Under the pieces are notes generated by a model. The model was not told where the DNA came from, searched no databases, and saw only the letters and a list, made by a program, of their open reading frames with translations. Source: Promethearchaeota archaeon (GTDB lineage Archaea; Asgardarchaeota; Lokiarchaeia; Sigyniarchaeales; SOKP01). From it: DNA of 30,870 nucleotides. The DNA is taken from contig JBHLNZ010000032.1 in the NCBI GenBank assembly GCA_048941015.1, forward strand, positions 1-30,870, in the 5' to 3' direction. A program made the translations under genes and the position numbers. This document shows, in pieces, positions 2,536-20,672 of the stretch; the first letter of the stretch is position 1, and the number at the start of each line of letters is the position of its first letter.

Positions 2536-3348
2536 TCATACTTTTAAAGTTATGGGATTCACTGTGTCTGTTTTTCCATAAGTTGGGATAATCCACATAT
2601 ACATACAATATTTTAGTTTTTTATATTGTGGTCTGGTAAAATTACAATGACCTAAATCACCAGGAAAAAAGAGTCCTTCTCCATTTTGTAAATCCTTACA
2701 AATTGAATATCCTTCAGAGTTTATTAAGTATTGAGTTATAGCGTAGGTAGGATCATCAATACACATAATATAAATCTCAGGATACTCTGGGTGAATGTGT
2801 GAATAGATTTCTTTCTTCCCATCCTTGGTCTCTTCTAAATTAACGCTTGTTATAGTTCCTTGTCTTAATGATTCATTAGGAATATTGGTAAAACCTGACA
2901 TGAAATACCCATTTTTAATAGCAGTCCAAACTGTTCGAAATGTTGCCATTTTTTCTTCAGAACCTCGTTCACCTCGCGGTAATAATTTATTCATATCAAA
3001 GTATTGTATTTCAAAAGCAGTGTTAGAGTTAGTCTTGATATTGTAAGAATAAATACAGATCTTTAGGTTCTTACGATTTTTTAACTGAGCTTTTATTGTT
3101 ATACTAGCATCTGAAGGAAGAAAAAAGAAATCAAATTGATTTAATTCATATAATTTTTGATTATAAATTATTTTAGTATTACCAGATAATAAGCATCCAT
3201 TTAATACTTCATTTATCTTTGTCCTAATTTTAAGATCTTTATTAAAATAGAAATATTTTATTTTTGACGAGTCTAATTTACGTATTATCGCGTTTTTAAT
3301 CGGATTTTCAAAATAAAAATCCATCATTTCTGATCTAGAGAACTGCAT
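2536..3348 (-). CDS. KduI/IolB-like cupin (sugar-acid isomerase family)
   Basis: Bicupin-like. Metal motif SHIHPEYPEIY, then GEGLFFPGDLGH and YMWI, as in the IolB/KduI C-terminal cupin. Substrate unknown. Confidence 0.6.
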   Translation of the reverse strand: MQFSRSEMMDFYFENPIKNAIIRKLDSSKIKYFYFNKDLKIRTKINEVLNGCLLSGNTKIIYNQKLYELNQFDFFFLPSDASITIKAQLKNRKNLKICIYSYNIKTNSNTAFEIQYFDMNKLLPRGERGSEEKMATFRTVWTAIKNGYFMSGFTNIPNESLRQGTITSVNLEETKDGKKEIYSHIHPEYPEIYIMCIDDPTYAITQYLINSEGYSICKDLQNGEGLFFPGDLGHCNFTRPQYKKLKYCMYMWIIPTYGKTDTVNPITLKV

Positions 3349-3386: not shown

Positions 3387-4595
3387 TTAAAAAAATTCAG
3401 ATGAAACTGGTGTTTGAATTCTTATAGATCTTTGAGAATTATCTTCTAATATTGAAATTAAAGCCGAAATATTTTGTTTGGTTGCATATTTAATTTCTTT
3501 TTCTTCATTTGGCTTCCAACTCTTGAATCCTGTTAGGATTGGAGCAGTTTCGAATAAACCTTCTTGTAATCCTGAAACTTTAACAGTCACGCCTTCTAAT
3601 TTCTCTTTAGAGATATTCTTTACTTTAATTATATATTTTTCTAAATCTGAATCAATGGAAACAATCTGATAAGATTTTTGGAACCGCGATGAAACCCCAT
3701 CTAATAAAGTAGGAGCTGCTGAGGGTGCTCCTGAAAATAGGTCAATATCGGACTTTGAATCAGATATATTTTTTGAGATTATTGTGATGGGTAATTCAAA
3801 TTTTATCGGTTCTCTACCAAACTCAGGCCTTTTAGTCCCAATAATCATCAACGACCATTTAGTATAATCACCAAATTTAAAACCCCAATATTCTTTTTCA
3901 GTTGGTTCCCAAAGATAATTATGACTCGGTTCAGCAATTTCAGGGACCTTCAATAATAAAAATCCTTTTTCAATATTTGAAGTTTTAGCATTTCCAGCAA
4001 TAGCAGGAGGTAATTCTTCCACTTTGCGACAAGTTTGGCCATATGCATCGCAATAACAAATTAGATTCGCTTTTTGAAGTAATCTAATTTCAATTTGCTT
4101 TAATTCCTCTGAACTAAAACTAATTTTAATTGTTTCTCCTGGTTTGAAAACATCTTTAGAAAGAAGAATATTCAATCCTGAGATAGAAAATGAAATCGGT
4201 TGTGGGGTTTTTGTTTGTATACCAGAGTCCTTAGCTTTAATTTCTATTTTCTGAGTTTTGTTTACTATTAAATCATCATCGGGATTTAGTGGATTTGGTT
4301 GTCTTAAATTTAGCTTTAATTCATACTCTAAATCTCGATTCTTAATTGTTGGTACCACATTATTTTTAACCAAAATAGATCGTTCTCTAATATATTCGCC
4401 AGCTTCAAAATTTCCTTTCGAAAAGATCTCTTCTTTCGCGATTACTAATTCTTTTACGCATGGGGGATAGGTAATTAATCGAACTCCTGCCCATAATATA
4501 GAGCTGTTCTCTACAAACTTGAATTTAGTTCTAACATTCAATTTATCTCCGATAAACACAGAACCATAATTTAAATCAGTAAGCTCTAACTTCAT
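3387..4595 (-). CDS. arrestin-fold protein (arrestin N + arrestin C) with extra C-terminal beta-sandwich domain
   Basis: N-domain pattern FEAGEY...VVPT...LEYELKLNLRQP. C-domain pattern ILLSKDVFKPGETIKI...IEIRLLQK...LKVPEIAEPS...FELPITI. Followed by an Ala/Pro/Ser linker and a ~100-aa beta-rich domain. Confidence 0.7.
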   Translation of the reverse strand: MKLELTDLNYGSVFIGDKLNVRTKFKFVENSSILWAGVRLITYPPCVKELVIAKEEIFSKGNFEAGEYIRERSILVKNNVVPTIKNRDLEYELKLNLRQPNPLNPDDDLIVNKTQKIEIKAKDSGIQTKTPQPISFSISGLNILLSKDVFKPGETIKISFSSEELKQIEIRLLQKANLICYCDAYGQTCRKVEELPPAIAGNAKTSNIEKGFLLLKVPEIAEPSHNYLWEPTEKEYWGFKFGDYTKWSLMIIGTKRPEFGREPIKFELPITIISKNISDSKSDIDLFSGAPSAAPTLLDGVSSRFQKSYQIVSIDSDLEKYIIKVKNISKEKLEGVTVKVSGLQEGLFETAPILTGFKSWKPNEEKEIKYATKQNISALISILEDNSQRSIRIQTPVSSEFF

Positions 4596-4871: not shown

Positions 4872-5588
4872 ATGAAAAAAGAACATTTAAGTAAAGAAAT
4901 CAAGGCAATTCTCTTTGATCTAGATGGAACGCTAATAAATGTTGATTTAAAGCTTTTTATACCAGCTTATTTGAAGCTTTTAGCTGACTTTATGTCTGAC
5001 ATTCTACCAAAAAGGAAGATTATTCCGAAGTTGTTGCAATCTTCAGAGGCAGTTAATAAAAATAATGGGCAAAAAACTAATGAACAAGTATTTTTTGAAA
5101 CTTTTTTCCCGCTTAATGGATATTCTAAGGATGATATACAACCTCTCCTTGATGAATTTTACGAAAAAGAATTTAAAAAATTACGTCAATTTACAACCAA
5201 AAAACCTGAAGCAAGATCTGTGGTTCAGGCTGTATTTGATAACGATTTTGATGTTGTTATTGCAACTACACCGGTCCTTCCATTAACAGCAATCCAACAA
5301 AGACTCGAATGGGCAGATGTAGCGGATTTTCCTTATAATTTAATTACTAGTATTGAAAATTCATGTGCCACAAAACCTAATTTAATCTATTATAAGCAAA
5401 TATTACAATATTTAGGTCATTCTCCTGTAAATTCTTTAATGGTAGGAGATGAAGATAAAGATATGGTTGCTGCAAAGATAGGATGCCAAACCTTCCTAAT
5501 TCATAGTAATAACACTGAATTGGATTTGGTGACTCCAGAGCCAAATTATAAAGGCACTTTAAATGATTTAAAAAATCTTATTTTATAA
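4872..5588 (+). CDS. HAD-superfamily hydrolase
   Basis: Motif I LFDLDGTL, motif II IAT, motif III KP, motif IV MVGDEDKD. Confidence 0.92.
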   Translation: MKKEHLSKEIKAILFDLDGTLINVDLKLFIPAYLKLLADFMSDILPKRKIIPKLLQSSEAVNKNNGQKTNEQVFFETFFPLNGYSKDDIQPLLDEFYEKEFKKLRQFTTKKPEARSVVQAVFDNDFDVVIATTPVLPLTAIQQRLEWADVADFPYNLITSIENSCATKPNLIYYKQILQYLGHSPVNSLMVGDEDKDMVAAKIGCQTFLIHSNNTELDLVTPEPNYKGTLNDLKNLIL

Positions 5589-5623
5589 TTAGACTATAAT
5601 TGATATTGAAAGGATTAAATAAA

Positions 5624-6529
5624 ATGGATTTTCAGTCTTTAACAAAAGACAATGTAGAAGATATATATAATTTATTTAAAAATAATGAACCATTCTATTC
5701 GATCCCTTTATCATATTTCGTTAATGGCACTTTAAATGATGAAGACTATGATCCGGAGATGATGTTGACCTTAATTAATGAAGAAACCGAAAAACCAATC
5801 GCAGCGTTATTAGCAGTTATCAGGAAAGGTCTTGTTCGAAAAAATTGCTATATTAAAGCTTTGATTATTGACAAAAATTGTAGACGTCAAGCAATCGGCT
5901 CAAGAATGCTGGAAGAAATCATCTTAAGAGCAAAGAGAAAACTTAAATGGGGGGCTTCAATTTTTTATGGCGATAGTAGACCGAATTATTGGCAACCTGG
6001 AGTAGACTTACGACATACTAGTCTATTCTTTTTTCTTAAGAAGCATGGTTTTAAAACATATAGAATGCGATATAACCTTACTTTATCATTAGAAAATATC
6101 AAAAAAATTCCTAAAAATAACATAGAAGAATATAATTTTAGTAGAATTCAACCAAAATATTTTAATAAAACCTATGAATTTGTTAAGAAACAATTTCCAA
6201 TAGGTTTCTGGGCACAAGAAGTTCAATTATCATATAAAAATAATCCACCAACCACTTTTATAGCAAAAGATCCAAATGATGAAATTGTAGGATGGGCTAC
6301 TCATAGTAATCTTTTTCCCGGTTCATTTGGGCCAACAGGAGTTTTGAAATCATTAAGAGGAAAAGGAATAGGTGGCGAGCTTTTATCATGGTGCATCTGG
6401 GATATGCAACAAAATGGATTAGAAACTTGTACTATAATGTGGGTTGAGGAAAATACAATTAAGTTCTATTCTAAAGTTTTAGGTGCTTATATTCATCCAG
6501 TCTTTTATCCTATGGGTAAAAAGTTATAA
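5624..6529 (+). CDS. tandem-domain GNAT N-acetyltransferase
   Basis: Two acetyl-CoA-binding motifs: RRQAIGSRML and LRGKGIGGELL. ATG at 5624 preferred; TTG at 5600 is the alternative. Confidence 0.85.
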   Translation: MDFQSLTKDNVEDIYNLFKNNEPFYSIPLSYFVNGTLNDEDYDPEMMLTLINEETEKPIAALLAVIRKGLVRKNCYIKALIIDKNCRRQAIGSRMLEEIILRAKRKLKWGASIFYGDSRPNYWQPGVDLRHTSLFFFLKKHGFKTYRMRYNLTLSLENIKKIPKNNIEEYNFSRIQPKYFNKTYEFVKKQFPIGFWAQEVQLSYKNNPPTTFIAKDPNDEIVGWATHSNLFPGSFGPTGVLKSLRGKGIGGELLSWCIWDMQQNGLETCTIMWVEENTIKFYSKVLGAYIHPVFYPMGKKL

Positions 6530-6542
6530 AATTAAATTTAAA

Positions 6543-7541
6543 TCATTCTTCCTTTTGCAAAACAAATTTATTATCCAAATAATGAATTTTTGGTAATTGT
6601 TTTATCCTTTCTTTTTCGATTTTTTTACTTATAAGATTTAATGGATTTTTATAACCTACTTTATGCAATCCCTTTTCATTAAGTCCTCCTAAAAATGATA
6701 AGTAATTCACACATTCAAACATCATCTTAGTTGACCCCGCTAAATATTCAGAATATTGAGAATGTAATAATCCATTCTTCTCTAATATAACGGCATCACC
6801 ATGAAAGTTATACAATCCTGGATTTAATCCTGCGATATGGACTAAATCACTCGTAACTATAAATCTAGAAGATCCTTTTGAACGAAGAGAAACTTTAATT
6901 AAATCATCAGGTAAGTGGAAACCATCTGTTATAAATAATCCATATACACGTTGATCCGCAAGAATGGGCCATAATGGATTATCATGCCTATGAATCATAT
7001 TCTGAAGACCATTTCCCACGTGAGTTGCTGCTTGAATACCTGTATCTATAGCTTTCTTAATTATTTGTTTTCCTGCATTTGTATGCCCAATAGAAACAAC
7101 TATATCACTTGTATCGAGTATATTTTCAATCAAATCAAAAGCGTCTTTAACTTCAGGAGCAATAGTTATGAGAATAATTTGATTTTGAGCCCATTTTTGA
7201 AATTTTTCAAATAAATCAATAGAAGGACTAATTATATTTTCTTGTGGATGAATACCTCGTACTCCAATTTCAGGATTTATAAACGGTCCTTCTAAATGGA
7301 TCCCTAAAATCTGTGCTCCAATTTTTTGATTCATAGCTTCAGATATCAAACGAAGATTATGTTTATAAGTCTCTAAAGTAGAAGAAATTAGAGTGGGACA
7401 ATAACCAATAACACCGAATTTACAGAGCTCTTTTGAAATGAAGGTTATACTTTCTAATGTTAATTTCGGATCAGAAAAGTCAACCCCTTTATATCCATTA
7501 ACTTGAAGATCCACAAAACCCATAAATTTCAAATAAAACAC
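6543..7541 (-). CDS. nagA: N-acetylglucosamine-6-phosphate deacetylase
   Basis: GFVDLQVNG, GIHLEGPFIN, TIAPE, SIGHTNA, ATHVGNG, DGFH, VTSD and LAGS motifs. Start uncertain (7541 GTG, 7532 TTG or 7523 ATG). Confidence 0.9.
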   Translation of the reverse strand: MFYLKFMGFVDLQVNGYKGVDFSDPKLTLESITFISKELCKFGVIGYCPTLISSTLETYKHNLRLISEAMNQKIGAQILGIHLEGPFINPEIGVRGIHPQENIISPSIDLFEKFQKWAQNQIILITIAPEVKDAFDLIENILDTSDIVVSIGHTNAGKQIIKKAIDTGIQAATHVGNGLQNMIHRHDNPLWPILADQRVYGLFITDGFHLPDDLIKVSLRSKGSSRFIVTSDLVHIAGLNPGLYNFHGDAVILEKNGLLHSQYSEYLAGSTKMMFECVNYLSFLGGLNEKGLHKVGYKNPLNLISKKIEKERIKQLPKIHYLDNKFVLQKEE

Positions 7542-7654
7542 CCTTTTTACAAGAATAAATTATTATTACAATTAAATAGAAAAAAAAATACTTAAGACTA
7601 AAATATTGAAATTAATTCTTTCAATTATTATAAGTTAACTAGGGATATTAAAAA

Positions 7655-10336
7655 ATGTCTAAAAAAGCATTTGGATCAGGTTATTTTGGTGAGTGGATTG
7701 AGGATGAGCATGGATTACCAGCTTATAGATATACGTGCGATCAAGTAAACGATCCGAAAGCGATTACACCTGTTAACGAAGTATTTCGCTCCAAAACGGA
7801 TCATTCTTTTTTAGTAGGAAATGACCGCTTAGTTGGAGTTGCTTCAAATTATGGGTATATACAGGTAAGACAAGATGAAGGTGGACCCAAATATCTTAAT
7901 GATTATAATCCCGAAGAGCAGCAATATGCGGGAGGTTTTGGATATCTTACCGATGGACATGAATATTTAAGTACTTTTTTTTCAGGCGATACAGAAAATT
8001 ATGAAAGATTCTTTGGGATTGGTTATATGAGAAAAATTGTTAAAAGTCATAATTTTATCGTAGATCAAATTATATACGCTCCTTATGGTGATGATCCAAT
8101 ACTAATTTCACAAGTTAATATTACAAACCAAAAAAAAGTTGCTGTTGACTTGCGTTGGATTGAATATTGGGGTTGCCAAATGTATCAATTTACTTTAAAC
8201 TCATATGGAATAGCTTTAGCTAAAAAGGATCCATCTATTGCAAATCAACATCGTAGAAACATAAATAAGCAATTCACACATAAATTTTCAATTATCAATG
8301 AAAACCAGGGTATTTTAGAAGAGAAATTTCTGAAAGGGAAAAATAATTTAAAAAGAGATAATGATAAAAAAGCCATAAAGAAGGCTTCTTTTGAAGATTG
8401 GAATCCTCCGCCTACATTTTTAATTTCACTTGATGATAAAGCTGATGTTATCAGTACTAATGCTCCTGAGTTTTTTGGAAAAGAAAGCGTTTTGTATCCT
8501 GAGAAAATAAATGATCCTTTAAAATGGGATCTTTCAAGAAATGATGAAAAAAGCGCAATGTTTATCGAACGTAGAATAACTTTAAAACCTAGTCAAGAAA
8601 AAACTTTATATTTTGCATTTGGGTATCTTCCAGATGGGTTTAATCTAAATTCTCTTATTAATAAATATAAAGAAGAAATGTCAATTGCATGGTTGAATTC
8701 ATCAAAAAGCTGGGCTAAAAACACATTATCATTCATTGTATTAGGTGAAGATTGGGTTAATAGAGAAATTTTATGGCACTATTACTACTTACGTGGAGCA
8801 ATGACCTTTGATGACTATTTCCAAGAACATATTTTATCACAAGGTCATGTATATCAATATATAATAGGATTTCAAGGAGCTGCTCGAGATCCTTTGCAAC
8901 ATACCAAACCATTTCTTTTATCTGAACCATCAATTGTAAAAGAGATTCTGAAGTATACATTAAAAGAAGTACAACACGACGGGAGTATACCATATGCAAT
9001 AACAGGATCAGGTATACTTGCGCCATTATCGTATAAACCAAGTGATTTAGAGCTATGGTTATTATGGCTTATTAGTGAATATGTTTTATTAACAAGGGAT
9101 AAATCTTTCCTAGATGAAATGCTTCCAATATATCCTCTTCACGGACGAAAAACTAAAACTTTAAAAGTTCGCGAAATTGTCGAACTTTGTTATCTGCATT
9201 TTACTGAAGTTATCGGAAAGGGTCAACATGGGCTTCAACGTCTTTCGAACGGCGATTGGAATGATACAGTAGTTATCGGTTACGTTCCAGAAGATAAACA
9301 TACTGACATTATCGAAAAAGCTGAAAGTATTTTGAATTCAACCATGGCAGTATTTGTATTGAATTATTATAGCGAAATGCTGACCTTCTTAGGTGAAAAT
9401 GAGAAAGTAAAAGAAATTTTAGAATACAGTAACTCATTAAAAGAAGCTGTTAAAGCACAATGGACCGGTAAATGGTTTAAAAGAGCTTGGTTAACAGATT
9501 CAATTGGCTGGATTGGAGAAGATCAAATATGGTTAGAGCCTCAACCATGGAGTATTATAGCGGGAATAACAGATCTGGAAAAAAACGATATTTTAATCAA
9601 TAATATTAATGAATTAGTACGTAAACCTTCAAATATCGGTGCTATGCTTCATAGCAAAGGATTGACGAATTTAAAGAAATTGTTAGGAGTAGGAACAAAT
9701 GCAGGTATATGGCCCTCAATAAATGGGACATTAATCATGGCTTTATCATTAGTAAATAGAAATATGGCATGGAATGAATGGAAAAAGAATAGTCTTGCAT
9801 TCCATGCAGAAAATTATCCAGATATATGGTATGGTATATGGAGTGGGCCAGATACTTATAATTCTAATCTATCTAAATATCCTGGTCAAACTCTATTTAA
9901 TGAATTTCTTCTTACGGGAAATCCAGAAGATAATGTTGAAGCGCTTACTTCTACAGGATTAAATTTCACTGATTTTCCTGTACTAAATTTACATTCTCAC
10001 GCATGGTTATTATATAATTGTGTTCATTTAATTGGGGCAAAAGTTACTAAGGAAGGTATTGAATTTTCCCCCCTATTACCTAAGGATCATTACGAATTTA
10101 GTTCAAAAATTTTAGGATTCAAAAAGTTGAAAAAAGGGTATAAAGGCTGGTATTATCCTTTAATCAACGGTAATTGGAAAATTACTTTGGTCCTTAATAA
10201 TAATGAATTAAATTCTATTCAATCTTTAATAGTAAACGGTAATCCAAAGAAGTTTGATAAGGATAATAATTCAATTAGTTGGTATGGAACAAGTACAAAA
10301 GATAAGGCCCTTTTTTGGGAAATAAGTTTTTCTTAG
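7655..10336 (+). CDS. GH94-like glycoside phosphorylase/hydrolase, (alpha/alpha)6 barrel
   Basis: 893 aa. GAARDPLQH, SDLELWLLWLISEYV..T.D..FL.E and GQHGL...NGDWND (catalytic-Asp motif of cellobiose/chitobiose phosphorylases). Confidence 0.75.
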   Translation: MSKKAFGSGYFGEWIEDEHGLPAYRYTCDQVNDPKAITPVNEVFRSKTDHSFLVGNDRLVGVASNYGYIQVRQDEGGPKYLNDYNPEEQQYAGGFGYLTDGHEYLSTFFSGDTENYERFFGIGYMRKIVKSHNFIVDQIIYAPYGDDPILISQVNITNQKKVAVDLRWIEYWGCQMYQFTLNSYGIALAKKDPSIANQHRRNINKQFTHKFSIINENQGILEEKFLKGKNNLKRDNDKKAIKKASFEDWNPPPTFLISLDDKADVISTNAPEFFGKESVLYPEKINDPLKWDLSRNDEKSAMFIERRITLKPSQEKTLYFAFGYLPDGFNLNSLINKYKEEMSIAWLNSSKSWAKNTLSFIVLGEDWVNREILWHYYYLRGAMTFDDYFQEHILSQGHVYQYIIGFQGAARDPLQHTKPFLLSEPSIVKEILKYTLKEVQHDGSIPYAITGSGILAPLSYKPSDLELWLLWLISEYVLLTRDKSFLDEMLPIYPLHGRKTKTLKVREIVELCYLHFTEVIGKGQHGLQRLSNGDWNDTVVIGYVPEDKHTDIIEKAESILNSTMAVFVLNYYSEMLTFLGENEKVKEILEYSNSLKEAVKAQWTGKWFKRAWLTDSIGWIGEDQIWLEPQPWSIIAGITDLEKNDILINNINELVRKPSNIGAMLHSKGLTNLKKLLGVGTNAGIWPSINGTLIMALSLVNRNMAWNEWKKNSLAFHAENYPDIWYGIWSGPDTYNSNLSKYPGQTLFNEFLLTGNPEDNVEALTSTGLNFTDFPVLNLHSHAWLLYNCVHLIGAKVTKEGIEFSPLLPKDHYEFSSKILGFKKLKKGYKGWYYPLINGNWKITLVLNNNELNSIQSLIVNGNPKKFDKDNNSISWYGTSTKDKALFWEISFS

Positions 10337-11049
10337 CTTAATTCCTTTTCTAATCTATTTTTAATTTCTTTTAATGCAAAAACCCTAAACTGCTTAGGAT
10401 TGAGGATATCTTTTTTCAACAAAACAGGTTCATAGACCATTTCTGCTTTATGACTATTCATAGCTTTCTGAGATTTAGTAAGATCTGATTCTGCTTTTGC
10501 GACTCCAACGCAGATAGAATAAATATAATAAAAAAGAGCAACAGGATCTTCTACTTTGATCTCATTATCTTGAGCAACTTTTAGGAATGTTTCAATTCCT
10601 TGTTCGATAAATCGGAATGGACGATATTTTTTTTCATAAGGGCCTGGTTCTTTAATGCTACCATCTTTATCTACTGAATGTGGTGGAGCAGGTATAAATT
10701 GCATAATCTGAAAACGAGGATAATCAATACTAGCAAATTCTAAATACTTTTCAATCCATTTCATACAAAAATCAATAAATGACCATTTCTCTTTTTCATA
10801 TTGATTTCTCAATTCATTAAATTCATCTTGATATTCAGATAAACATTTTTGCCTTATTGCTATCCATAATTCTCTTCTACTTTCAACATAATTATAGAGA
10901 TTTGCTTCTGACATACCCAATTTTCTTGATAATTCTCTCATTCCAACTTTTCCTTTTAGAACGTATAAATCCTTTGCGATATTTAAGATTTCATCAAACT
11001 GTTTTTCTTTCTCTGCCCCTCTGGCTCGCTTATTTTTCTTTATACTCAT
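10333..11049 (-). CDS. TetR/AcrR family transcriptional regulator
   Basis: ILNIAKDLY...GMRELSRKLGMSEANLYNYVESRREL is a TetR helix-turn-helix. Confidence 0.9.
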   Translation of the reverse strand: MSIKKNKRARGAEKEKQFDEILNIAKDLYVLKGKVGMRELSRKLGMSEANLYNYVESRRELWIAIRQKCLSEYQDEFNELRNQYEKEKWSFIDFCMKWIEKYLEFASIDYPRFQIMQFIPAPPHSVDKDGSIKEPGPYEKKYRPFRFIEQGIETFLKVAQDNEIKVEDPVALFYYIYSICVGVAKAESDLTKSQKAMNSHKAEMVYEPVLLKKDILNPKQFRVFALKEIKNRLEKELS

Positions 11050-11251
11050 AATTTTGGTCCTTCTAACTTATTTTTCATTTTTATCGAGTTTAATCAAAAA
11101 GCAGATTATTAAATAAGAAAAGTATTTTAGTCCTTTTTATAATTTTTATAGAATTCATATTATTAATGTTCTTAGAAATCAAAAGAATTAAAATAATCTA
11201 ATTTCATAAAGGAGGAATATGAGAAAAAAAATAACATAAAATTGAGTAAAA

Positions 11252-11395
11252 TTAAAGAGTTGAAGAAGGTTTTTTAATATTAACTTTATTTTTATCAGAA
11301 TGAGAAGTATTATTATCTGCAATTTTACTTTTTACGCAATCTTCACAATATTTTAATAATATGTCGGAATTTTTTGTAGGTTTTCGAGAGTCCAT
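11252..11395 (-). CDS. candidate 47-aa small protein with CxxC
   Basis: ATG-started ORF MDSRKPTKNSDILLKYCEDCVKSKIADNNTSHSDKNKVNIKKPSSTL*, in an otherwise empty 557-bp gap. Not in the ORF track. Confidence 0.3.
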   Translation of the reverse strand: MDSRKPTKNSDILLKYCEDCVKSKIADNNTSHSDKNKVNIKKPSSTL

Positions 11396-11606
11396 TTTTG
11401 TTAATTCCGAAAAGTAAATTATGTTAATTAATTATAAACTTTTTTAAATTTAAAGTTATCAAAAAAGTAAAGATATGTACTTCTAACTCTCACATGAAAA
11501 TGAGTTTTATATTTCAAAATTAAGTTAAAAGTTAAGCAATTAATTTTAAAAACCAACAATATAATTATTTTGTTTTATTGAAATACCTTTTCTTTTATGA
11601 TACTAT

Positions 11607-12170
11607 TTAAACATTGAATTCTTCAAAACCTAGGTTCTTTATAAATAGGTAAGCACTTTTATTCTCTTTAGAAACTCGACATCTTAACTCCTTAAGTCCT
11701 TTCTTTTTGAAATAATTCCAGATTTCTAAACCTAATGCCGTACCGAAACCTTTACGTTGAAGATTAGGAATTACACCTAAAGCAGAGATTACCCCAATTT
11801 GATTATTTTCTCCAGTATAATGAATTATAGCAAATCCACAATCTTTATTATTTAGTTTAGCAATTAAAAAAATTACATTGGGATCTTCTATTAATTTTAT
11901 CAAAACTTCTTTAGAAAAAGGCTTATACGGCATTATTGTTGACATCCAAATTTGCTTATGTAGTTCTATAAAAATTTCGACATCTTTTCTAGTCACTTCT
12001 CGTATTTCTACATTTTTTAAAGTTTGATCGAATTTTTTTTTTAAATTTTCTTCAAATTCCCTCGTAATTTTCTTGATAGGAAGTCTCATATGAATATAGC
12101 TTTCATCATCTTTTAAGAGATCTAAAGTTTCTCCTAATGAATGCAAAATGATTGATCTAAACCACTCCAT
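11607..12170 (-). CDS. GNAT N-acetyltransferase (paralog A)
   Basis: LGVIPNLQRKGFGTALG motif A; ends NKSAYLFIKNLGF. ATG at 12170; TTG at 12176 is the alternative. Confidence 0.9.
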   Translation of the reverse strand: MEWFRSIILHSLGETLDLLKDDESYIHMRLPIKKITREFEENLKKKFDQTLKNVEIREVTRKDVEIFIELHKQIWMSTIMPYKPFSKEVLIKLIEDPNVIFLIAKLNNKDCGFAIIHYTGENNQIGVISALGVIPNLQRKGFGTALGLEIWNYFKKKGLKELRCRVSKENKSAYLFIKNLGFEEFNV

Positions 12171-12287
12171 TTTCAAAAAAAATTTGTTAACTATTAAATT
12201 ACCAAATAATCAGAAATTATATTTTTGATTTTTAATTTTTTTAACCTAATTAATTTAATTAAATTAAGAAATTTTAAGATATCTATT

Positions 12288-13688
12288 ATGATAACTAATT
12301 CTGATGTTTTAGTAGTTGGAGCTGGAACCGCTGGAACTTATATAAGTTGGATAATCGCAAAGAAAGGGTATTCTGTAATACTTATTGAGAAAGATAAAAA
12401 AGAAGATGTGGGAAAGAGATTAGATGTTATTCATTTCGAATCTGATCGGATTGAAAAAGCAGGAATACCCCCTTTTAAGATAGGAGACCCTGATTGCATT
12501 GATATTAGAGATATATCATATGTAATAACTCCAGACTTCAAAACAGAATTAAAAATAAGAGCGCTACAAACAATCGTCAGATTAACACCGTTTTTAAATA
12601 AGATGTATAAGTTACTTGAGTCTGATGGTGTTAAAATTGTATTCTCTTGTGAATTTAAAGAGCTTATATATGAAAATGGAAGAATTGTAGGCTTAATCGC
12701 TGAAAAAGATGGAACTTCTATTGAATTTCGATCAAGGTTAGTCATAGATGCATCAGGTAAGCCAGCAGTAGTTAGAACTTTATTACCAAAAAATTATGGT
12801 ATTGAAACTTTCAAATTAGAACCTCAAAATGTAATGTATGTATTATTGCAATATATTAAATGGAAAGACCCTGAAGGACACCATCCTAAAATAGATTCTG
12901 GCTATAATTGGTGGTTATTATGGTTTGGCCCATCTTATGATAAAGATGGGGCAATATTGGGAGTTGGACAACCCGGATCTTATGAAAATGCTAAAAAAGC
13001 TCGAGAGGATTTTCTTAGTAGAGCAAATATTCCCCCTTATGAGATCATAAAGGAAGAAAAGGGATTTACTCCATATAGAAGACCACCATTTTCATTAGTT
13101 GCTGATGGTTTTCTCTGTATAGGAGATGCAGCAGCAATTACTTATCCCTTTTCCGGTCATGGCGTTACTGCAACTTGGGTTTTATGCATGATTGCTACTA
13201 ATATAATTGGAAAAGAATTGAAAACAGAAGGATATATTACCAAAGAACGTCTTTGGGATATAAATGTAAAGTATTTTCGAGATCAAGGTGCCAAATTTGC
13301 AGCATTATTGACACAATTATCTGGCGTTTTAAACTTTAATGAAAAAGAATGGAATTATTTCTTGAAAAAAGGATTAATTTACCAAACTGGGAAAGATGAT
13401 GACATTCCTGAACCAAATAAGGAATATGAAGAAAAAATGAGCGTTGGTGCCATGATAAAATTCCTAATGAAAATCTTATGGGGTTTGATAAAAAGAAAGT
13501 TATCATTAAAAAATATGAAGCGATTGATAAACGCTAATGGTCTTGCCAGTAAAATTCAGAGACACTATGAAAAATTTCCACAAAACTTTGAAGATTTTGA
13601 AGATTGGGTCATCAAAACAAAAGAATTATGGGCACAGAAAAAAGTTGCGGTTAAAAAATTACCCAACGTATCTATTGAATACAATTAA
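12288..13688 (+). CDS. FAD-dependent oxidoreductase, geranylgeranyl reductase-like family
   Basis: DVLVVGAGTAG Rossmann motif, VIDASG, CIGDAAAITYPFSGHGV. ATG at 12288 preferred over TTG at 12225. Confidence 0.85.
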   Translation: MITNSDVLVVGAGTAGTYISWIIAKKGYSVILIEKDKKEDVGKRLDVIHFESDRIEKAGIPPFKIGDPDCIDIRDISYVITPDFKTELKIRALQTIVRLTPFLNKMYKLLESDGVKIVFSCEFKELIYENGRIVGLIAEKDGTSIEFRSRLVIDASGKPAVVRTLLPKNYGIETFKLEPQNVMYVLLQYIKWKDPEGHHPKIDSGYNWWLLWFGPSYDKDGAILGVGQPGSYENAKKAREDFLSRANIPPYEIIKEEKGFTPYRRPPFSLVADGFLCIGDAAAITYPFSGHGVTATWVLCMIATNIIGKELKTEGYITKERLWDINVKYFRDQGAKFAALLTQLSGVLNFNEKEWNYFLKKGLIYQTGKDDDIPEPNKEYEEKMSVGAMIKFLMKILWGLIKRKLSLKNMKRLINANGLASKIQRHYEKFPQNFEDFEDWVIKTKELWAQKKVAVKKLPNVSIEYN

Positions 13689-14269
13689 AATTTCCACGTG
13701 ATAAACTCTGTATCATATTCCTTAAAACCAAGTCCCTTTATGAAGTTATAAGAGATCTTATTATCTCGATAAACTTTACATCTTAGCTCTTTTACATCAT
13801 TTTTTTTAAAATAATCCCATGCTGCCATTCCTAATATCGTTCCTAGTCCTTTTCTCTGAAGTTTTGGAATAATTCCAAGACCAGCTATAACTCCAATTTC
13901 ATCTTTATCTCCAGTAAAATATAAAACAATAAATCCACTATCAATAGATCCAACCTTAGCAATAAAAAACTCAATCTCAGGATCATCAAAAAGCTTTAAA
14001 ATCTTTTCTTTATTTAATTGATGATAAGGCATTGGAGCTGACTTCCATGATTTATCATGCATATTTATAATACTATCAAGGTCATCTGGCTTTGCTTCAC
14101 GAACATCTGCATGAATGATATTGTGTTCTATTTTTTCTTTAAGCTTTTCTTCAAATTCCTGTGTAATATCTTCAACTGGAAGTCTCATTTGAATATAATC
14201 ATAATGACCTTGTGCAGTACGTTTCAATCCCGAAGTAATACTAGAAAAAAAATTTTTAACTTTACCCAT
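13685..14269 (-). CDS. GNAT N-acetyltransferase (paralog B)
   Basis: LGIIPKLQRKGLGTILG and NKISYNFIKGLGF. Clearly paralogous to 11607..12170. Confidence 0.9.
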   Translation of the reverse strand: MGKVKNFFSSITSGLKRTAQGHYDYIQMRLPVEDITQEFEEKLKEKIEHNIIHADVREAKPDDLDSIINMHDKSWKSAPMPYHQLNKEKILKLFDDPEIEFFIAKVGSIDSGFIVLYFTGDKDEIGVIAGLGIIPKLQRKGLGTILGMAAWDYFKKNDVKELRCKVYRDNKISYNFIKGLGFKEYDTEFITWKF

Positions 14270-14418
14270 TTTTAATTAAATCTGCTTTTATTGATATTAT
14301 AGTATTTACTTCTTTTATAAAAAAAGTTTTATTTTAATTCATAATGAATAAAATATTTATATAGCAAGATAAAATAATAGAACTTATCAATACAAAATTA
14401 TTGAAGGAAAGTCTAAAA

Positions 14419-14652
14419 ATGACTCTAAGTTTTATATTTATGAAAGTCAAAGCGGGATTTGTAGAACATGTAATCAAAACATTGTTAGAAATGCCTGAAG
14501 TAAAGGAAGCGCATGGTGTTACAGGAGGTATTGATATAATTGCTAAAATTGAAGCAGATGATATCAATATGATTTCAAAAATTACATTATCAAGAATCCA
14601 TCAAATTGATGGTGTAGAAAGGACAGCAACTCATATTGTTGTGCCATTATGA
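14419..14652 (+). CDS. stand-alone Lrp/AsnC ligand-binding (RAM) domain protein
   Basis: PEVKEAHGVTGGIDIIAKIEA...IDGVERTAT; no HTH. ATG at 14419. Confidence 0.88.
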   Translation: MTLSFIFMKVKAGFVEHVIKTLLEMPEVKEAHGVTGGIDIIAKIEADDINMISKITLSRIHQIDGVERTATHIVVPL

Positions 14653-14707
14653 AAATAAAAAATAATAATTAATTTTTTCCCTTTTTAACAAATTTATCAT
14701 TTTAACG

Positions 14708-15970
14708 TCAAAATACATTACTTTCTTCAACTTCAGCTTCTTTTACTTCATTTAACTTACGTATATTTGTAAAAAAATAGAATATACTGAATATTAAAAA
14801 CGTTAAGATACCACAAATTAAAAATAAATTCCTTGTGCCTATTATTAAAGCTAAGGGTCCTGAAGCCAATGTACCAAGTGGCATTGCAATTAAAGATAAT
14901 GTCGTATCTATTGACACCACTCTACCTACTTTATCTTTTGGTACACTCAAATGAATAATAGTGTAATAGAGTGAATTTACAGTTGGCATTGAAAATCCAA
15001 TCATTGCCATATAAACCCATATTAAAGGAAAGAATCCTAATGGTACTGTTCCCAATAGAGAATACCCTATTGAAGCAATAATATACGCGATAAAAATCAT
15101 ACGCATTTTGTATTTCCATTTTTTCTTAAATGCAGTGATAATCCCCCCTATTAACATACCTATATTGAAAGCAATCGAAACTAGAGAGAAATCTAAAACG
15201 GTGCCCCCATGAACTACTTTTACATAATATGCAGTTAATGTACCTCTTGGTTGATTTAAAAAATTAATAATCATAAATATCATCATCATTCCAAGAATTC
15301 CTGGTATAGCACGAACAATGTTAAGTCCTTCTTTAAAAGCGTGGCTGAATGATATACCTTTCTCATTATCTTTAACTTCTTTGACACTGGGAATCTCAAT
15401 TAGTAATAATGGGACTACAGCAATCAAGAATGTAATTATATCTATCCAAAATGCCTCTTGAACTGCTAGAAATAATAACAAAAATCCCCCTATTATAGGT
15501 CCAGCAACATTAATAAAACTAGTCACTAAAAAGTTTATTCCATTTATCCTACTTAATTTATCTTTTGGGACCATACTTGGAATTATAGCGTTCTCAGTTG
15601 TGAAATGAAAAGTTTGGCATATACTTCGTATCGCAATAAAGATTAATAATGACCAAAATTGGATCAGATTAAACATGAAAAATAATATCAAAATAAAAGT
15701 TGAAAATGCTTGAAGTGAATCTGATATTAGTATTATGCGTTTCCTATTATAATGATCTGTAACTATTCCCGCGATGGGTGATGTAATAGCCATAGAGAGA
15801 ATGAAAGTAAAAAATGTTATTGAGATAGCAATTGGGTCTTCTGTTGTATCGGTAATCCACCATTGTATAGCAAAAAATACTACACTTGAACCCAAAATAG
15901 AAAATAATTGCCCAATCCAAAATATTAAGTAATTTCTAAAAATCTTATTTTCCATTTTAATTTCCAACAA
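14708..15970 (-). CDS. MFS transporter (DHA3/Mef-like efflux family)
   Basis: About 12 hydrophobic segments; WIGQLFSILGS, GIVTDHYNRKRI (motif A), IPSMVPKDKLSRING. Alternative ATG start at 15955. Confidence 0.92.
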   Translation of the reverse strand: MLEIKMENKIFRNYLIFWIGQLFSILGSSVVFFAIQWWITDTTEDPIAISITFFTFILSMAITSPIAGIVTDHYNRKRIILISDSLQAFSTFILILFFMFNLIQFWSLLIFIAIRSICQTFHFTTENAIIPSMVPKDKLSRINGINFLVTSFINVAGPIIGGFLLLFLAVQEAFWIDIITFLIAVVPLLLIEIPSVKEVKDNEKGISFSHAFKEGLNIVRAIPGILGMMMIFMIINFLNQPRGTLTAYYVKVVHGGTVLDFSLVSIAFNIGMLIGGIITAFKKKWKYKMRMIFIAYIIASIGYSLLGTVPLGFFPLIWVYMAMIGFSMPTVNSLYYTIIHLSVPKDKVGRVVSIDTTLSLIAMPLGTLASGPLALIIGTRNLFLICGILTFLIFSIFYFFTNIRKLNEVKEAEVEESNVF

Positions 15971-16230
15971 TTATTCACTTTATTATAAAACGAAAAAAGG
16001 TAATTATCGATATTTCTTTAAGTATAAAATAAACTCTTAAGTTTTTAGTTTATTTTAAAGAATAAATTAATCAGAATAAAATCAAATTAAATATAAAATT
16101 TCGTTTTAATCATGTAATTTACAACATTTATATATTTTTTTAATTAATACTAAATTTATAAAATAATTTTTTATCAATTCTTTACATTTAGTGAAAAAAA
16201 TTTTTCAAAAAAAACCTATAATATTAAATC

Positions 16231-18066
16231 ATGATTGAAAATCGAATTTTATTTACTACACCAACATATCCTTACCCAACTCTTCCTGCTAATGATTCTC
16301 TTACTGATGCAACTGGTCAGAGATTTACTAAAGGTGACGATATTTTTACCCTTATTTCACATACACATTGTTATGCCAACCATATTCTTGCTCAAAACAT
16401 AGAAATCCCTTCTATTTTACTTGAATACCCTCGATGGAAAGATTTTAAAAAAGAGGTGGATAAGGGATATTCAATTATTGGTATTAGCGCATTTCCACCT
16501 CATTTAGATACAATTATAAAAATGTGTGAATACATTCGAGAAAAATCTCCTGAGACAACAATTATGTTGGGTTCTTACGCAGCTCAAGCCTTTAAAGCAA
16601 AATATGATGAAGAAACGCAAAAAAAATACGTGGACTACGTTGTTAAAGGGGAAGGCGTTAAATTTCTTCGTGAATTTTTAGGTGAAGATATTAATAAACC
16701 TATTGAACAAAAATTAATGCCTAAATGTGGGGGTGCTCCTTGGTTTATAAATAAATTTCCAATTGGTAATGTCGGTTTTGTTGTCACAGGATTAGGTTGT
16801 CCTGGTGGCTGTGATTTTTGTTCCACTACAGAAATGTTTGGATTTAAAAGAATTGAGTTATTATCTCCCAAAGAATTCGTTGAACACATAAATCTTTACC
16901 ATAAACATTTTCCTGATGTTCGATTAATTTTTGCAATTGAGGAAGATCATTTTCGCCATCCAGAATATTTATTTGAAACAAAAAAGTATTGGGAATCTAA
17001 TCCAGAGGTTGTTGAATCACTTGATTGGTTAGCTTTTGGCTCAGTAGATAATATTTATAAGTTTGCTAAAAAATATGGATGGGATACCATTGCTGAAATA
17101 GGTATAGGAGCAATCTTTATTGGTGTTGAATCAAAATTTGCGGGAGAATATGGTTATAGCAAACGTCAGGAAATTGATGCACGTAAAGTGTTCGATAAAC
17201 TGCATTCAATGGGAATAAGAACGTTGGGTGCTTGGATCTGTGGTTGGGATTTTCATAATCATTCAAATATGTATGAGGATCTTAATTATTTTGTAGCATG
17301 TTATCCAACTTTCCAACAGTTAACAAGATTATCTCCATTTCCAGGAACTGTATTATATGAAAAGATGAAAGAAGCAAATAGAGTCCGTGATGTACCTTGG
17401 GAAGATGTTCATTTCTGGAGTGGAAGTCAAGAAAATATAGCACTTGAAACTCATGAAACGCTCAATCTCACTGAAGATGGGTATGATTTATTATACAAAA
17501 CGTGGGGTCCATCAATGTTAAGAAAGTTAGACGTAACCCTTAATGGTTATAATTTTTGCTTAAATTCAGATAATCTAATCATGCGAGAACATAAATCTGT
17601 CCTTTTTAAACGTCAGGCAGCTCTTTTATGGAATCTAATTAATGCAATGGACCGTTTTGCCCCTAATGGAGTAGTGAGGAGAAGAGTTCGAAAAACTGAT
17701 GAAAAATATAGAAATTTAATCGGAGAACCTACTCCTATTATGAAATATTTAGTAAAAATAGTTGAGAAACGAGCTAAGAGGTTTAAAATAAAGACCATTT
17801 TAGATCCATTCAATCGATATCCTAAAGAAGAACCTTTTAAGCGTTATTTATATGAAAAAGATGGGAAATTGAGTAGAAAAGCAACTTCCTATAAAACTGA
17901 AGAACCAACAAAGAAACCTTTTGAGATGAAGTGGACTAATTTTCAATTAAAATTATTAGCTAGCATATTGAAAATAATTAGAACATTCAAAAGAAAAGGA
18001 TCAGATAAAGATATCGATAATTATATAATAGAAACTGTAAAAAGGCGGAATTTTATAGCATTCTAA
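16231..18066 (+). CDS. B12-binding domain radical SAM protein
   Basis: N-terminal cobalamin-binding-like domain (IIGISAF...IMLGSY...VKGEG), CxxxCxxC in GCPGGCDFC, FIGVES, SPFPGTVLY. Confidence 0.88.
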   Translation: MIENRILFTTPTYPYPTLPANDSLTDATGQRFTKGDDIFTLISHTHCYANHILAQNIEIPSILLEYPRWKDFKKEVDKGYSIIGISAFPPHLDTIIKMCEYIREKSPETTIMLGSYAAQAFKAKYDEETQKKYVDYVVKGEGVKFLREFLGEDINKPIEQKLMPKCGGAPWFINKFPIGNVGFVVTGLGCPGGCDFCSTTEMFGFKRIELLSPKEFVEHINLYHKHFPDVRLIFAIEEDHFRHPEYLFETKKYWESNPEVVESLDWLAFGSVDNIYKFAKKYGWDTIAEIGIGAIFIGVESKFAGEYGYSKRQEIDARKVFDKLHSMGIRTLGAWICGWDFHNHSNMYEDLNYFVACYPTFQQLTRLSPFPGTVLYEKMKEANRVRDVPWEDVHFWSGSQENIALETHETLNLTEDGYDLLYKTWGPSMLRKLDVTLNGYNFCLNSDNLIMREHKSVLFKRQAALLWNLINAMDRFAPNGVVRRRVRKTDEKYRNLIGEPTPIMKYLVKIVEKRAKRFKIKTILDPFNRYPKEEPFKRYLYEKDGKLSRKATSYKTEEPTKKPFEMKWTNFQLKLLASILKIIRTFKRKGSDKDIDNYIIETVKRRNFIAF

Positions 18067-18084
18067 CCTTAATTTTAGATTTTT

Positions 18085-19170
18085 ATGAAATCAACTCCTT
18101 TAATTACCCAGAAACCGGGAAATACTCCAATTGGGGGCATTCCACTAGACTATTTTCCAAATAACTGTGGATTTTGGTTAAAACTTTTCAGAGGCTTTGA
18201 TAAAGGCAAAAAATTATTTTTTAGAGATAGCTCACATGGGAATGGAAATCCAGGAAGTACAATAGTATTTGTTCATGGTAATCCAGAATGTTCTTATACA
18301 TATAGAAAAATTATCAAGTCCCTTATTAATAATGCTAAAAAACCATTTAGAATCATAAACGTTGATCATATTGGTTTTGGTTTGTCAGATCAAGCTACAT
18401 ATGAAATGGTTTGCATGGACCATTGTAGAAATTTATTTCAATTAATTGAAATTTTGGATTTAAAGAATGTTACATTGGTCGTTCATGATTGGGGGGGTCC
18501 TATTGGGATAGGGGCACTCTTGAAAGAACCATACCGATTGTCAAATTTAATAATTCTCAATAGTACTGTTTTTCCATTGTCAAAAGAGGGAAAAACATAT
18601 AAGAATTATCCGATATCTTGGTTGGGATGGGCTAGAGGACCTCATATTATTCCAAATCACTTTTGGGGGTCATTTTCTTCCTTTGCAATCTTTCTAAAAC
18701 CACTAAAACCAATTAAATTATTATTGAATATGCTTAAATATCTCTTGTTAGCAGAATTGAATATCTTTCCTTGTGAGAATCTGATCTTTCGAAAATTAGT
18801 TCGATTACAATTTCGATCAAAATTAAATACTTTAAGTTCTAAACGATTAGTTCTTCAAACCCCATACTGGGGATATGGAAATACATATAAGGAACCTAAA
18901 TTAGGTAAAAGAAGTACTAAAGAATTTTATCATTTTATCCAGCAACACATCAAAAAAGATTGGGGTCCTAGAGGACAAAACATAGGAGTTAAATTAGTTT
19001 TTGGAGCATGGGATGCCGTATGTAAGAAATCTGTTATTAGACAGTGGTTAGAGAATTTACCTCAACTTAAAGGTTCTATTAAAGTCTTTAAAGATGAAAC
19101 TCATTTTATTCAAGAAACAAAAGCTAATCATATCGCAGATAAAATTATAGAAATTGCAGATTTAAAATAA
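18085..19170 (+). CDS. alpha/beta hydrolase, haloalkane dehalogenase/OleB-like
   Basis: FVHGNPECSYTYR, DHIGFGLSD, VVHDWGG (Asp nucleophile), C-terminal HFIQE His. Confidence 0.85.
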   Translation: MKSTPLITQKPGNTPIGGIPLDYFPNNCGFWLKLFRGFDKGKKLFFRDSSHGNGNPGSTIVFVHGNPECSYTYRKIIKSLINNAKKPFRIINVDHIGFGLSDQATYEMVCMDHCRNLFQLIEILDLKNVTLVVHDWGGPIGIGALLKEPYRLSNLIILNSTVFPLSKEGKTYKNYPISWLGWARGPHIIPNHFWGSFSSFAIFLKPLKPIKLLLNMLKYLLLAELNIFPCENLIFRKLVRLQFRSKLNTLSSKRLVLQTPYWGYGNTYKEPKLGKRSTKEFYHFIQQHIKKDWGPRGQNIGVKLVFGAWDAVCKKSVIRQWLENLPQLKGSIKVFKDETHFIQETKANHIADKIIEIADLK

Positions 19171-19213
19171 ATTAACCGAAATTCCTTTTTTTAATTATGG
19201 TTTAATCCTCTTT

Positions 19214-20428
19214 TCAAGAAAAAATGTTTACTTCAGAGAGAATATCTTTTTTCTTCTTCAATAATTTATAAACTGCATCTATAAAATCCTTTTGAGTAAT
19301 TAATTCCGAATCTCTTCTTATTGCAAACATTCCAGCTTCGCTACAAATTGCTTTTATATCAGCACCAGTCGCACCTTCGGTAATTCTTACTAATTCTTTT
19401 ATATCTAGGTCTTCTTTGAAATTTAAAAATCTCATATGAATTTTGAAGATCATCTCTCTCGCTTGTTCATTTGGTATAGGAAATTCTATTATTCTATCAA
19501 ATCTTCCTGGTCTTAATAAAGCAGGATCAAGAATATCAATTCTATTTGTCGCTCCGATAATTTTTACATCGCCTCGTTTATCAAAACCATCTAATTCACT
19601 TAATAATTGCATCATTGTTCTTTGAACTTCTCTATCACCAGAGGTTGAATCTTCCATTCTCACAGCGGCAATAGCATCAAGTTCATCAATCAATAAGATT
19701 GTAGGCGATTTTAATCTAGCTAACTGAAAAATTTCTCGAACATAGCGTGCTCCTTCTCCTATGAATTTTTGAACTAATTCTGAACCAATAACTCTAATAA
19801 AAGTAGATTTTGTTTCATGAGCAACTGCTTTAGCTAGTAAAGTCTTACCAGTACCAGGAGGACCATGAAGTAAGACTCCTTTAGGTGGATCAATTCCAAC
19901 TTTTTTAAACAATTCTGGTTTAAGCAAGGGTAACTCTACAGTTTCACGTACCTCTTGAATTTGATCATCTAATCCTCCAATATCATTATATGAGGTGTCT
20001 GGAATATAATCTACTAATTCCATTCCTTTAATGAAAGGATCTAAATGGCTAGGTAAGATTTCCATTATTGCAAATGTACTTTGATTAAGGGCAACACTCA
20101 TTCCAGGGCTCAATTTTTCATTTTTTACAAATTTACTGGTTTTCACTACAAAATCAGGACCAGAAGAACTTTTAATAATTAATCTTTCATTTTCTTCGTC
20201 TAATACGTCGATTATTACTCCAGTTATTAGGCTAGGCTCTCTTAATCGGTTTATTTCATTCCTTAAACTTTGAATTTCGTGTTCTAATCGAATTGTTTCT
20301 GATTTTAGTAATTGTCTTTCAGTTTCAAGATTCTTTATTCGATTTTCAAGATGATGAGAATATGTTAACAAATACTCATCATTTTCATTTTTACGTTGTT
20401 TTTTATCATCTTTATCTTCAGTAAGCAT
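19214..20428 (-). CDS. pan: proteasome-activating nucleotidase (AAA+ ATPase)
   Basis: N-terminal coiled coil plus OB domain; DIGGL, GPPGTGKT, pore loop KFIGEG, IDELD, GDREVQRT, ATNR..LDPALLRPGRFDR. Confidence 0.95.
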   Translation of the reverse strand: MLTEDKDDKKQRKNENDEYLLTYSHHLENRIKNLETERQLLKSETIRLEHEIQSLRNEINRLREPSLITGVIIDVLDEENERLIIKSSSGPDFVVKTSKFVKNEKLSPGMSVALNQSTFAIMEILPSHLDPFIKGMELVDYIPDTSYNDIGGLDDQIQEVRETVELPLLKPELFKKVGIDPPKGVLLHGPPGTGKTLLAKAVAHETKSTFIRVIGSELVQKFIGEGARYVREIFQLARLKSPTILLIDELDAIAAVRMEDSTSGDREVQRTMMQLLSELDGFDKRGDVKIIGATNRIDILDPALLRPGRFDRIIEFPIPNEQAREMIFKIHMRFLNFKEDLDIKELVRITEGATGADIKAICSEAGMFAIRRDSELITQKDFIDAVYKLLKKKKDILSEVNIFS

Positions 20429-20648: not shown

Positions 20649-20672
20649 GTTGAATTAACAGTTTAATTCAAC
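20649..20672. promoter_or_regulatory. perfect 10-bp inverted repeat, candidate operator in the divergent pan/thiolase region
   Basis: GTTGAATTAA-CAGT-TTAATTCAAC. Confidence 0.4.

Follow-up and report, generated by a model that had tools for sequence, protein, structure and literature searches.

Related C-terminal tails of an arrestin-like and an FrhB-like protein

The window analysed here is a stretch of 30,870 nucleotides from a Promethearchaeota archaeon of the Sigyniarchaeales (assembly GCA_048941015.1, contig JBHLNZ010000032.1), in which an arrestin-like protein (P0001) and an FrhB-like protein (P0002), encoded far from each other, both end in a small domain hereafter called the tail. A Rag/Gtr1-like GTPase is encoded beside the FrhB gene, and the features on which the argument rests are the following (lengths in amino acids, aa).

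3387-4595, minus strand: arrestin-like protein P0001, 402 aa
3390..3701, minus strand: tail domain A, the C-terminal ~104 aa of P0001 (residues 299-402), with a predicted sandwich core of 7 strands at ~3408-3671
3702..4595, minus strand: putative arrestin/Vps26-like two-lobe body of P0001 and Ala/Pro-rich linker (sub-threshold Pfam match, ESM Atlas neighbours)
25187..26095, minus strand: Rag/Gtr1-like GTPase, 302 aa, separated by 83 bp from the FrhB gene upstream of it; conserved centre of the module (Pfam)
26179-27675, minus strand: FrhB-like protein P0002, 498 aa
26182..26505, minus strand: tail domain B, the C-terminal ~108 aa of P0002 (residues 391-498), with a sandwich core at ~26200-26481
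26506..27675, minus strand: 2x[4Fe-4S] ferredoxin module, FrhB_FdhB_N, FrhB_FdhB_C and linker of P0002 (Pfam)

The body of P0002 matches PF04432 (FrhB_FdhB_C, E 6.9e-41), PF04422 (FrhB_FdhB_N, E 1e-20) and several Fer4 families, the FrhB domains ending near residue 340, and the GTPase matches Gtr1_RagA (E 9.7e-24, 84.5 bits vs a cut-off of 22), with ~110 residues following its G domain. P0001 does not reach the curated Pfam threshold for arrestin/Vps26 (Arrestin_C, E 0.0095, 16.7 bits vs a cut-off of 27.7 bits), and a profile of its family gave nothing significant against the PDB sequences (E 0.35). All 10 named best feature matches of its body in the ESM Atlas belong to the arrestin/Vps26 clan (scores 0.90-0.91), and a few of its ~250 close homologs of ~402 aa carry PF02752.

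The original prediction was that the two tails are copies of one domain, on the basis of a hand alignment with 14 identities in 44 columns and one gap. This alignment proved exact, the quoted peptides being present and their register correct, and the Ala/Pro-rich linkers (GAPSAAP and AARPA) and RF dipeptides said to precede both tails are indeed there in the window, these features not being conserved in distant orthologs. Compared directly, the two window tails gave a BLASTP E of 0.35, which lies within chance, and searches of their own genome with each tail did not find the other at E<=10. Profiles built solely from Loki-type tails (120 + 119 close homologs, effective number of sequences ~2) gave an hhalign probability of 7.6% (P 0.0046) and reproduced the register of the hand alignment, but were too shallow and of too low diversity to link the two tails. 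The BLASTP value and the Loki-only probability would both agree with a chance likeness of two unrelated beta-rich tails; since the window pair alone is not significant, homology has to be judged through intermediates.

These were sought among 301 genomes of the phylum. In distant Asgard genomes, the single FrhB tail recovers the tails of arrestin-like proteins (E 1e-6 to 2e-3 per genome) and also a third frame, of ~360 aa. In distant families the arrestin tail in turn matches FrhB tails (E 1e-4 to 8e-3), which form the C-terminal end of a ~500-aa frame located 2 kb away from the arrestin ortholog. The ~500-aa frames near distant arrestin orthologs are FrhB orthologs, and every cross-family match is C-terminal in the neighbouring gene where it was expected. 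When the reciprocal comparison proposed with the original prediction was carried out, hidden Markov models (HMMs) of the Loki-only tails cross-matched in both directions at 8 of 8 distant loci. With distant orthologs added to diversify the profiles, hhalign aligned arrestin and FrhB tails over 93 columns (97.6%, E 2.8e-12), arrestin and third-family tails at 97.3% (E 2.5e-11), and FrhB and third-family tails at 99.5% (E 9e-23). As controls, the same diversified tail profiles were compared with the N and C lobes of the arrestins, which are beta sandwiches too, and with a reversed profile, giving P values of 0.05-0.39.

An alignment of 66 tails has one invariant Asn and keeps the FE pair in 90% or more of its rows, with the consensus N.S...L..V.I.I....ELFET..W.T.I..W.P.EE.E..YP; the FE, P/W..T and P.E positions singled out beforehand are therein conserved. 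Neither a non-significant profile score nor unconserved motif positions, the outcomes named in advance as speaking against a shared domain, was found. The 8/8 reciprocal loci, the hhalign E of 2.8e-12 with clean controls, the third family in common and the conserved motif positions thus make chance likeness extremely improbable. Through the intermediates, the C-terminal domains of the arrestin-like and FrhB-like proteins are shown to be homologous, and the two tails are paralogs, each a copy of a single ~95-residue Ig-like (E-set, CARDB-like) domain. Chance likeness was accordingly rejected as a candidate explanation, being refuted by the reciprocal cross-matches, the diversified hhalign comparisons and the controls. 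In the tail tree, tails group by host family, with the arrestin tails forming one side of a branch with a support of 94 in the Shimodaira-Hasegawa-like approximate likelihood ratio test (SH-aLRT), and monophyly of the FrhB and third-family tail groups is not rejected; each fusion is therefore old, predating the split of these lineages.

AlphaFold models of both tails comprise 7 strands, with a mean predicted local distance difference test (pLDDT) of 84.5 for tail A, whose first residues are of low pLDDT, and of 89.6 for tail B. Both models were built from the same alignment, so their mutual likeness is not independent evidence. Foldseek returned generic Ig-like matches for both (E ~4e-4 to 3e-3, template modelling score (TM) ~0.5), including Fn3-like domains of GH3 enzymes, RhoGDI, NPC2, UNC119, PDE-delta, archaeal FlaF/FlaG and pilin, and transglutaminase C-terminal barrels. 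An exhaustive VIA structure search with both models ranked factor XIII/transglutaminase barrels at Z ~10, many GH2 Ig domains at Z 9-9.8, BBSome GAE domains at Z 9.1 (96 residues aligned, root-mean-square deviation 3.2) and Z 8.3, and arrestin-like lobes (ARRDC3, Spo0M) at Z 8.2-8.8. No match standing out from this Ig-like background was found in the structure searches of either tail. The suggested likeness to COP or adaptin appendages is consequently not specific, the BBSome GAE domains being tied with many unrelated Ig-like sandwiches. COP/AP appendage entries were missing from the best 50 matches of either fold search, a cut-off that does not exclude a match further down.

The same lists bear on the idea that the tail is a binding domain for small ligands, lipids or membranes in the manner of RhoGDI, PDE-delta, UNC119 or NPC2, and so targets its hosts to one site. 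All four do appear among the Foldseek matches of both models (E ~1e-3, TM ~0.5), yet no better placed than dozens of unrelated Ig-like domains, and we regard this explanation as improbable.

Family models led to a similar picture. The domain is covered by no Pfam model in a scan of each window tail, and over the 66 tails Alpha_adaptinC2, GAE and related models never reach their cut-off, the weak GAE_BBS1 matches in 6/66 tails (best E 0.0023) lying below it; the CARDB and DUF11 models have no match among the 66 at E<=1. The domain is rare. A tail profile, which found nothing significant among PDB sequences, retrieved from 1.84 billion representatives, at E<=1e-3, no more than 139 clusters, of which 7 are FrhB-like, 18 arrestin-like, 38 members of the third family, 39 short fragments and 6 other proteins of 216-600 aa. 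The remaining 31/139 are long DUF7507/DUF11/CARDB/NPCBM_assoc/ASH repeat proteins, mostly matching the first two strands only, with E values from 1e-13 to 1e-3 that reflect a superfamily-level relation only. The alternative guess of a CARDB-type sandwich therefore came closer than that of a coat adaptor, on account of this remote, profile-level tie to CARDB/DUF11-type repeats. Within the CARDB-like E-set group, the tail forms a narrowly distributed family of its own, with an ordinary Ig-like fold.

Carriers of the tail and their gene order

A merged tail HMM identified exactly four carriers among the 8586 frames of the window's own genome (G000), namely P0001 (tail A, E 1.6e-38), P0002 (tail B, E 1.6e-34) and two members of the third family, encoded on other contigs:

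C87:24201-25244: third-family protein with tail
C53:8727-9758: third-family protein with tail

Host families are three only, FrhB-like, arrestin-like and this ~350-aa third family, and the other eight-plus FrhB paralogs of the genome are without a tail. The domain is portable, as had been proposed, being common to three otherwise unrelated host families, in which it follows a flexible linker. In the searches run, its carriers were found only in Asgard-labelled records.

No Pfam family matches the C87 protein in its front 240 residues, and a third-family profile gave nothing significant against PDB sequences; the ESM Atlas model of this front part matches NPR2, NPRL2 and Folliculin clusters (TM 0.47-0.53). 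The third-family alignment contains F-[DH]-E-x-x-G-H..LF, a single member having GP instead of GH, and an Arg following 'KS' is nearly invariant; the position that reads GH in most members would correspond to the 'GP' motif of eukaryotic FLCN. A GP motif and an arginine finger are the described marks of longins of the GTPase-activating protein (GAP) type (PMC12290439). As a lead from these models, the front half of the third family may be folliculin/NPRL2-longin-like and a candidate GAP.

Two observations concern the surroundings of this family. The C53 paralog directly follows genes for an HdrA/MvhD fusion and for the small and large subunits of a NiFe-hydrogenase on the same strand (L065:4072-9758), a neighbourhood that connects the tail family with redox enzymes for a second time. 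In a Helarchaeota-labelled protein of 641 aa (P0256), a third-family part and the tail precede four CBS domains, and in Jordarchaeia the gene of a 151-aa CBS-pair protein adjoins that of the third family. Adenosyl compounds are the usual ligands sensed by CBS pairs. The CBS-related loci are:

L048:4986-6263, minus strand: CBS-related locus listed alongside P0256
L036:10847-11302, minus strand: CBS-related locus listed alongside P0256

Gene order was compared across Asgard lineages. In Jordarchaeia-labelled genomes (family f10) and in f21, the order is third family with tail, a C25-peptidase/GIFT-like protein, FrhB with tail, Rag-like GTPase and arrestin-like protein with tail. The core trio of FrhB with tail, Rag and arrestin with tail is kept in the Helarchaeota-labelled f3 as well as in f4 and f20, and the heimdall/hodarchaeal-labelled f24 keeps two third-family genes, FrhB with tail and Rag. 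Several genera of the window's own family have the trio directly adjacent, with gaps of 31-170 bp. In the Loki-type order, deduced from 80 loci, a HEAT-repeat gene is followed by FrhB with tail, Rag, an HAD gene on the opposite strand in some cases, arrestin with tail, a 270-aa protein and then, on the opposite strand, a small GTPase and a 125-aa protein. A HEAT homolog precedes FrhB with tail in ~half of these loci, many of them have an HAD homolog separating Rag from the arrestin gene, a homolog of the 270-aa protein comes after arrestin with tail in several, and the pair of Arf/Roc-like GTPase and 125-aa protein near the arrestin gene is conserved in several Loki-type genomes. Orthologs of the Rag-like GTPase are 44-93% identical across classes and always stand beside FrhB with tail. 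FrhB with tail, Rag and arrestin with tail are an ancestral operon-like unit.

The genes surrounding the carriers in the window are these:

649-1684, plus strand: 125-aa protein and 197-aa Arf/Roc-like small GTPase, a pair near the arrestin gene
2536..3348, minus strand: 270-aa protein, uncharacterised and outside every Pfam family, immediate downstream neighbour of the arrestin gene
4872..5588, plus strand: HAD-family hydrolase (Pfam HAD_2, 8e-13)
5600..25066, no single strand given: ~19.5 kb of unrelated genes between HAD and Rag (Pfam)
28055-29515, plus strand: class-III aminotransferase between the HEAT-repeat gene and FrhB
29542..30870, minus strand: HEAT-repeat protein, cut by the window end (Pfam HEAT_2, 4e-24)

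The flanks of the window are exactly the Loki-type ones, except for the ~19.5 kb block from HAD to Rag and for the aminotransferase between HEAT and FrhB. Among Loki-type relatives, the gap from Rag to the arrestin gene measures 31-170 bp or holds nothing but the HAD gene, so the arrangement of the window is derived. The original prediction treated the two carriers as linked over 22 kb; the genes are far apart as stated, but this distance is the split state of an ancestrally adjacent trio. The 5600-25066 block looks like an insertion or rearrangement specific to the genus, judging from these gene orders, and encodes tandem GNATs, an amidohydrolase, a GH94-like protein, an FAD oxidoreductase, an MFS protein, radical SAM/B12 proteins, an alpha/beta hydrolase, a PAN-type AAA ATPase, a thiolase and two URO-D-like proteins. 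No aminotransferase homolog (E<=1e-10) was seen between HEAT and FrhB in the 80 related loci, where HEAT directly precedes FrhB with tail. A sequencing-run search with positions 25100-27700 listed only DNA runs from sediment, mangrove and other metagenomes, and no RNA runs.

The tail also follows the GTPase in its distribution over GTDB families. Rag orthologs (E<=1e-40) occur in f1 (57/68), f3, f4, f10 (5/5), f20, f21 (6/6) and f24 (18/21), and none was found in the other 23 sampled families. The arrestin tail occurs in the same seven families as the Rag ortholog, and the FrhB tail additionally in f15 (1/3) and f25 (1/1); neither the ortholog nor either tail was found in f2, f7, f9, f14, f16 and f29. 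Since related genomes are not independent, this co-inheritance is to be read as a pattern and not as a statistic.

A possible assembly domain around a Rag-like GTPase

Gene order and co-inheritance together lead us to infer, as the original prediction did, that the carriers may be recruited to a common partner or membrane site. The tail would then be a common assembly or address domain gathering a redox enzyme, an arrestin-like adaptor and a longin protein (the candidate GAP) into one complex centred on the Rag-like GTPase, either by docking on the GTPase or by tail-tail pairing, and the redox or energy state, perceived by FrhB and in some lineages by CBS domains, could thereby be linked with the GTPase switch and with an output of arrestin type. 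We consider the chances that the tail is such a common assembly or address domain around the Rag-like GTPase to be about evenly balanced. That the system is an undescribed Asgard signalling module is a fair reading, because the carriers, four proteins from three host families, belong to one conserved gene unit around a Rag/Gtr1-like GTPase. A complex prediction for the Rag-like GTPase with the FrhB tail gave a median score of 0.31 vs a mark of 0.32, which speaks neither for nor against binding.

Several points weigh against an assembly role: (i) the carriers are dispersed in their own genome, with the arrestin gene ~20.6 kb from Rag and both third-family genes on other contigs, and co-transcription is therefore not required; (ii) no clear arrestin-like member was seen in f24; (iii) tails are ~20-30% identical between classes vs 44-62% for the GTPase, which is unusual for a tight common interface; (iv) part of the tail conservation is related to the fold, because the invariant Asn lies in a two-strand signature common to CARDB-type repeats; and (v) Ig-like domains are often only spacers.

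Some of these points would suit a passive appendage, in which the tail serves as a spacer or for solubility or stability and derives from an old duplication within one operon, the homology being real and no partner being shared. The generic fold matches, the fast divergence of the tails and the dispersal of the carriers agree with it. On the contrary, the domain is limited to three hosts that travel with one GTPase and is retained on all of them across classes, and the FE, W.T and W.P.E positions, which lie outside the generic CARDB signature, are common to all three; a passive role thus appears quite unlikely.

If the tail is indeed an assembly domain, the GTPase need not be what it binds. 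Tails might bind each other, by homotypic or heterotypic pairing of their sandwiches, and so assemble the FrhB-like, arrestin-like and longin proteins, with the GTPase engaged only via the longin. The gene-order and co-inheritance data fit this arrangement equally, and Ig-like domains commonly dimerise by their edge strands. Moreover, the third-family front resembles a GAP-type longin that would itself contact the GTPase, as FLCN or GATOR1 do with the Rags (PMC12290439). Docking on the GTPase fits the present data just as well, and we hold pairing as the sole means of assembly to be unlikely.

In a more ambitious version of the assembly role, the tail would address its hosts to an archaeal sensing complex built on the Rag GTPase and composed of an FrhB/CBS sensor, a longin GAP and an arrestin/Vps26-like output adaptor, a version that we put forward tentatively and consider rather unlikely. 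If true, such a complex would be a prokaryotic forerunner of the link of Rag/GATOR/FLCN to arrestin- or retromer-type sorting, and it would answer the question of which GTPase the Asgard GAP-type longins serve, these longins having been described with their GTPase partners left open (PMC12290439).

The interest lies in the Rag-centred module that the tail marks, and not in the Ig-like fold. A private domain common to exactly the proteins inherited with one Rag-like GTPase provides a concrete partner list, four proteins in the own genome, and thereby partners that can be tested in an archaeal relative of the nutrient switch of eukaryotes. The tail is moreover a simple biochemical handle that can be deleted or swapped, and the module suggests that redox metabolism may feed into a Rag-type switch. 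Rag-like GTPases, arrestin-like proteins and folliculin/NPRL2-like longins are counted among the Asgard eukaryotic signature proteins. No description of the FrhB-Rag-arrestin cluster or of its shared tail domain was found in the searchable literature, where Asgard small-GTPase genes are reported to be generally not in operons with regulators (PMC10933270).

Comparison with known systems

The closest parallel is the eukaryotic Rag/Gtr system with GATOR1 (NPRL2-NPRL3), FLCN-FNIP and Ragulator/EGO. It is alike in its centre, which the Asgard GTPase matches as Gtr1_RagA above the cut-off, in a co-inherited family whose front may be NPRL2/folliculin-like, with the TM values given above, and in the theme of nutrient or energy sensing. 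The Asgard module differs in that TOR kinase, Ragulator and the lysosome are not involved, in having as putative partners an arrestin-like protein and an iron-sulfur flavoprotein of the FrhB type, and in the private C-terminal Ig-like tail of its carriers. Rag/Gtr GTPases have a C-terminal roadblock domain that mediates dimerisation, and eukaryotic Rags act as heterodimers. A second Rag-like paralog, ~63% identical to that of the window, occurs in genus g4 of the same family (L146:6711-7616; L147; L148); both in g4 and in genome G259, this second paralog has no tail-bearing neighbours.

As a domain, the tail resembles the CARDB/DUF11/NPCBM_assoc/ASH/GAE E-set domains in its 7-strand sandwich and the adaptor ears in its C-terminal position after a flexible, poorly conserved Ala/Pro-rich linker. 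Its FE, W.T and W.P.E positions are, on the contrary, absent from CARDB/GAE-type families, and it is devoid of the platform subdomain of adaptor ears.

The body of P0001 is probably related to arrestin, Vps26 and Spo0M, judging by the weak Arrestin_C match and by the nearest Atlas clusters, while known arrestins and Vps26 are without the third, C-terminal sandwich domain that it has. To our knowledge, archaeal receptor or retromer partners of arrestin/Vps26-like proteins have not been described.

P0002 agrees with the FrhB/FdhB family in having FrhB_FdhB_N and FrhB_FdhB_C above their cut-offs and an N-terminal 2x[4Fe-4S] module, and differs in standing alone beside a GTPase and in its extra tail; neither the window nor the conserved cluster encodes FrhA/FrhG, formate dehydrogenase (FdhA) or another catalytic partner. 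Jordarchaeia have a second FrhB paralog of ~475 aa, without a tail, which adjoins the arrestin gene in convergent orientation (L036:1892-3313, plus strand, and orthologs).

The protein that separates the third family from FrhB with tail in Jordarchaeia and f21 is ~845 aa long and combines a peptidase C25 domain with ABC_transp_aux/DUF4350/GIFT-like parts. The own genome has only a distant homolog of it, encoded elsewhere (C91:48403-50559). The protein is found at:

L036:7127-9655 and orthologs in L037-L043, minus strand: ~845-aa C25/GIFT-like protein

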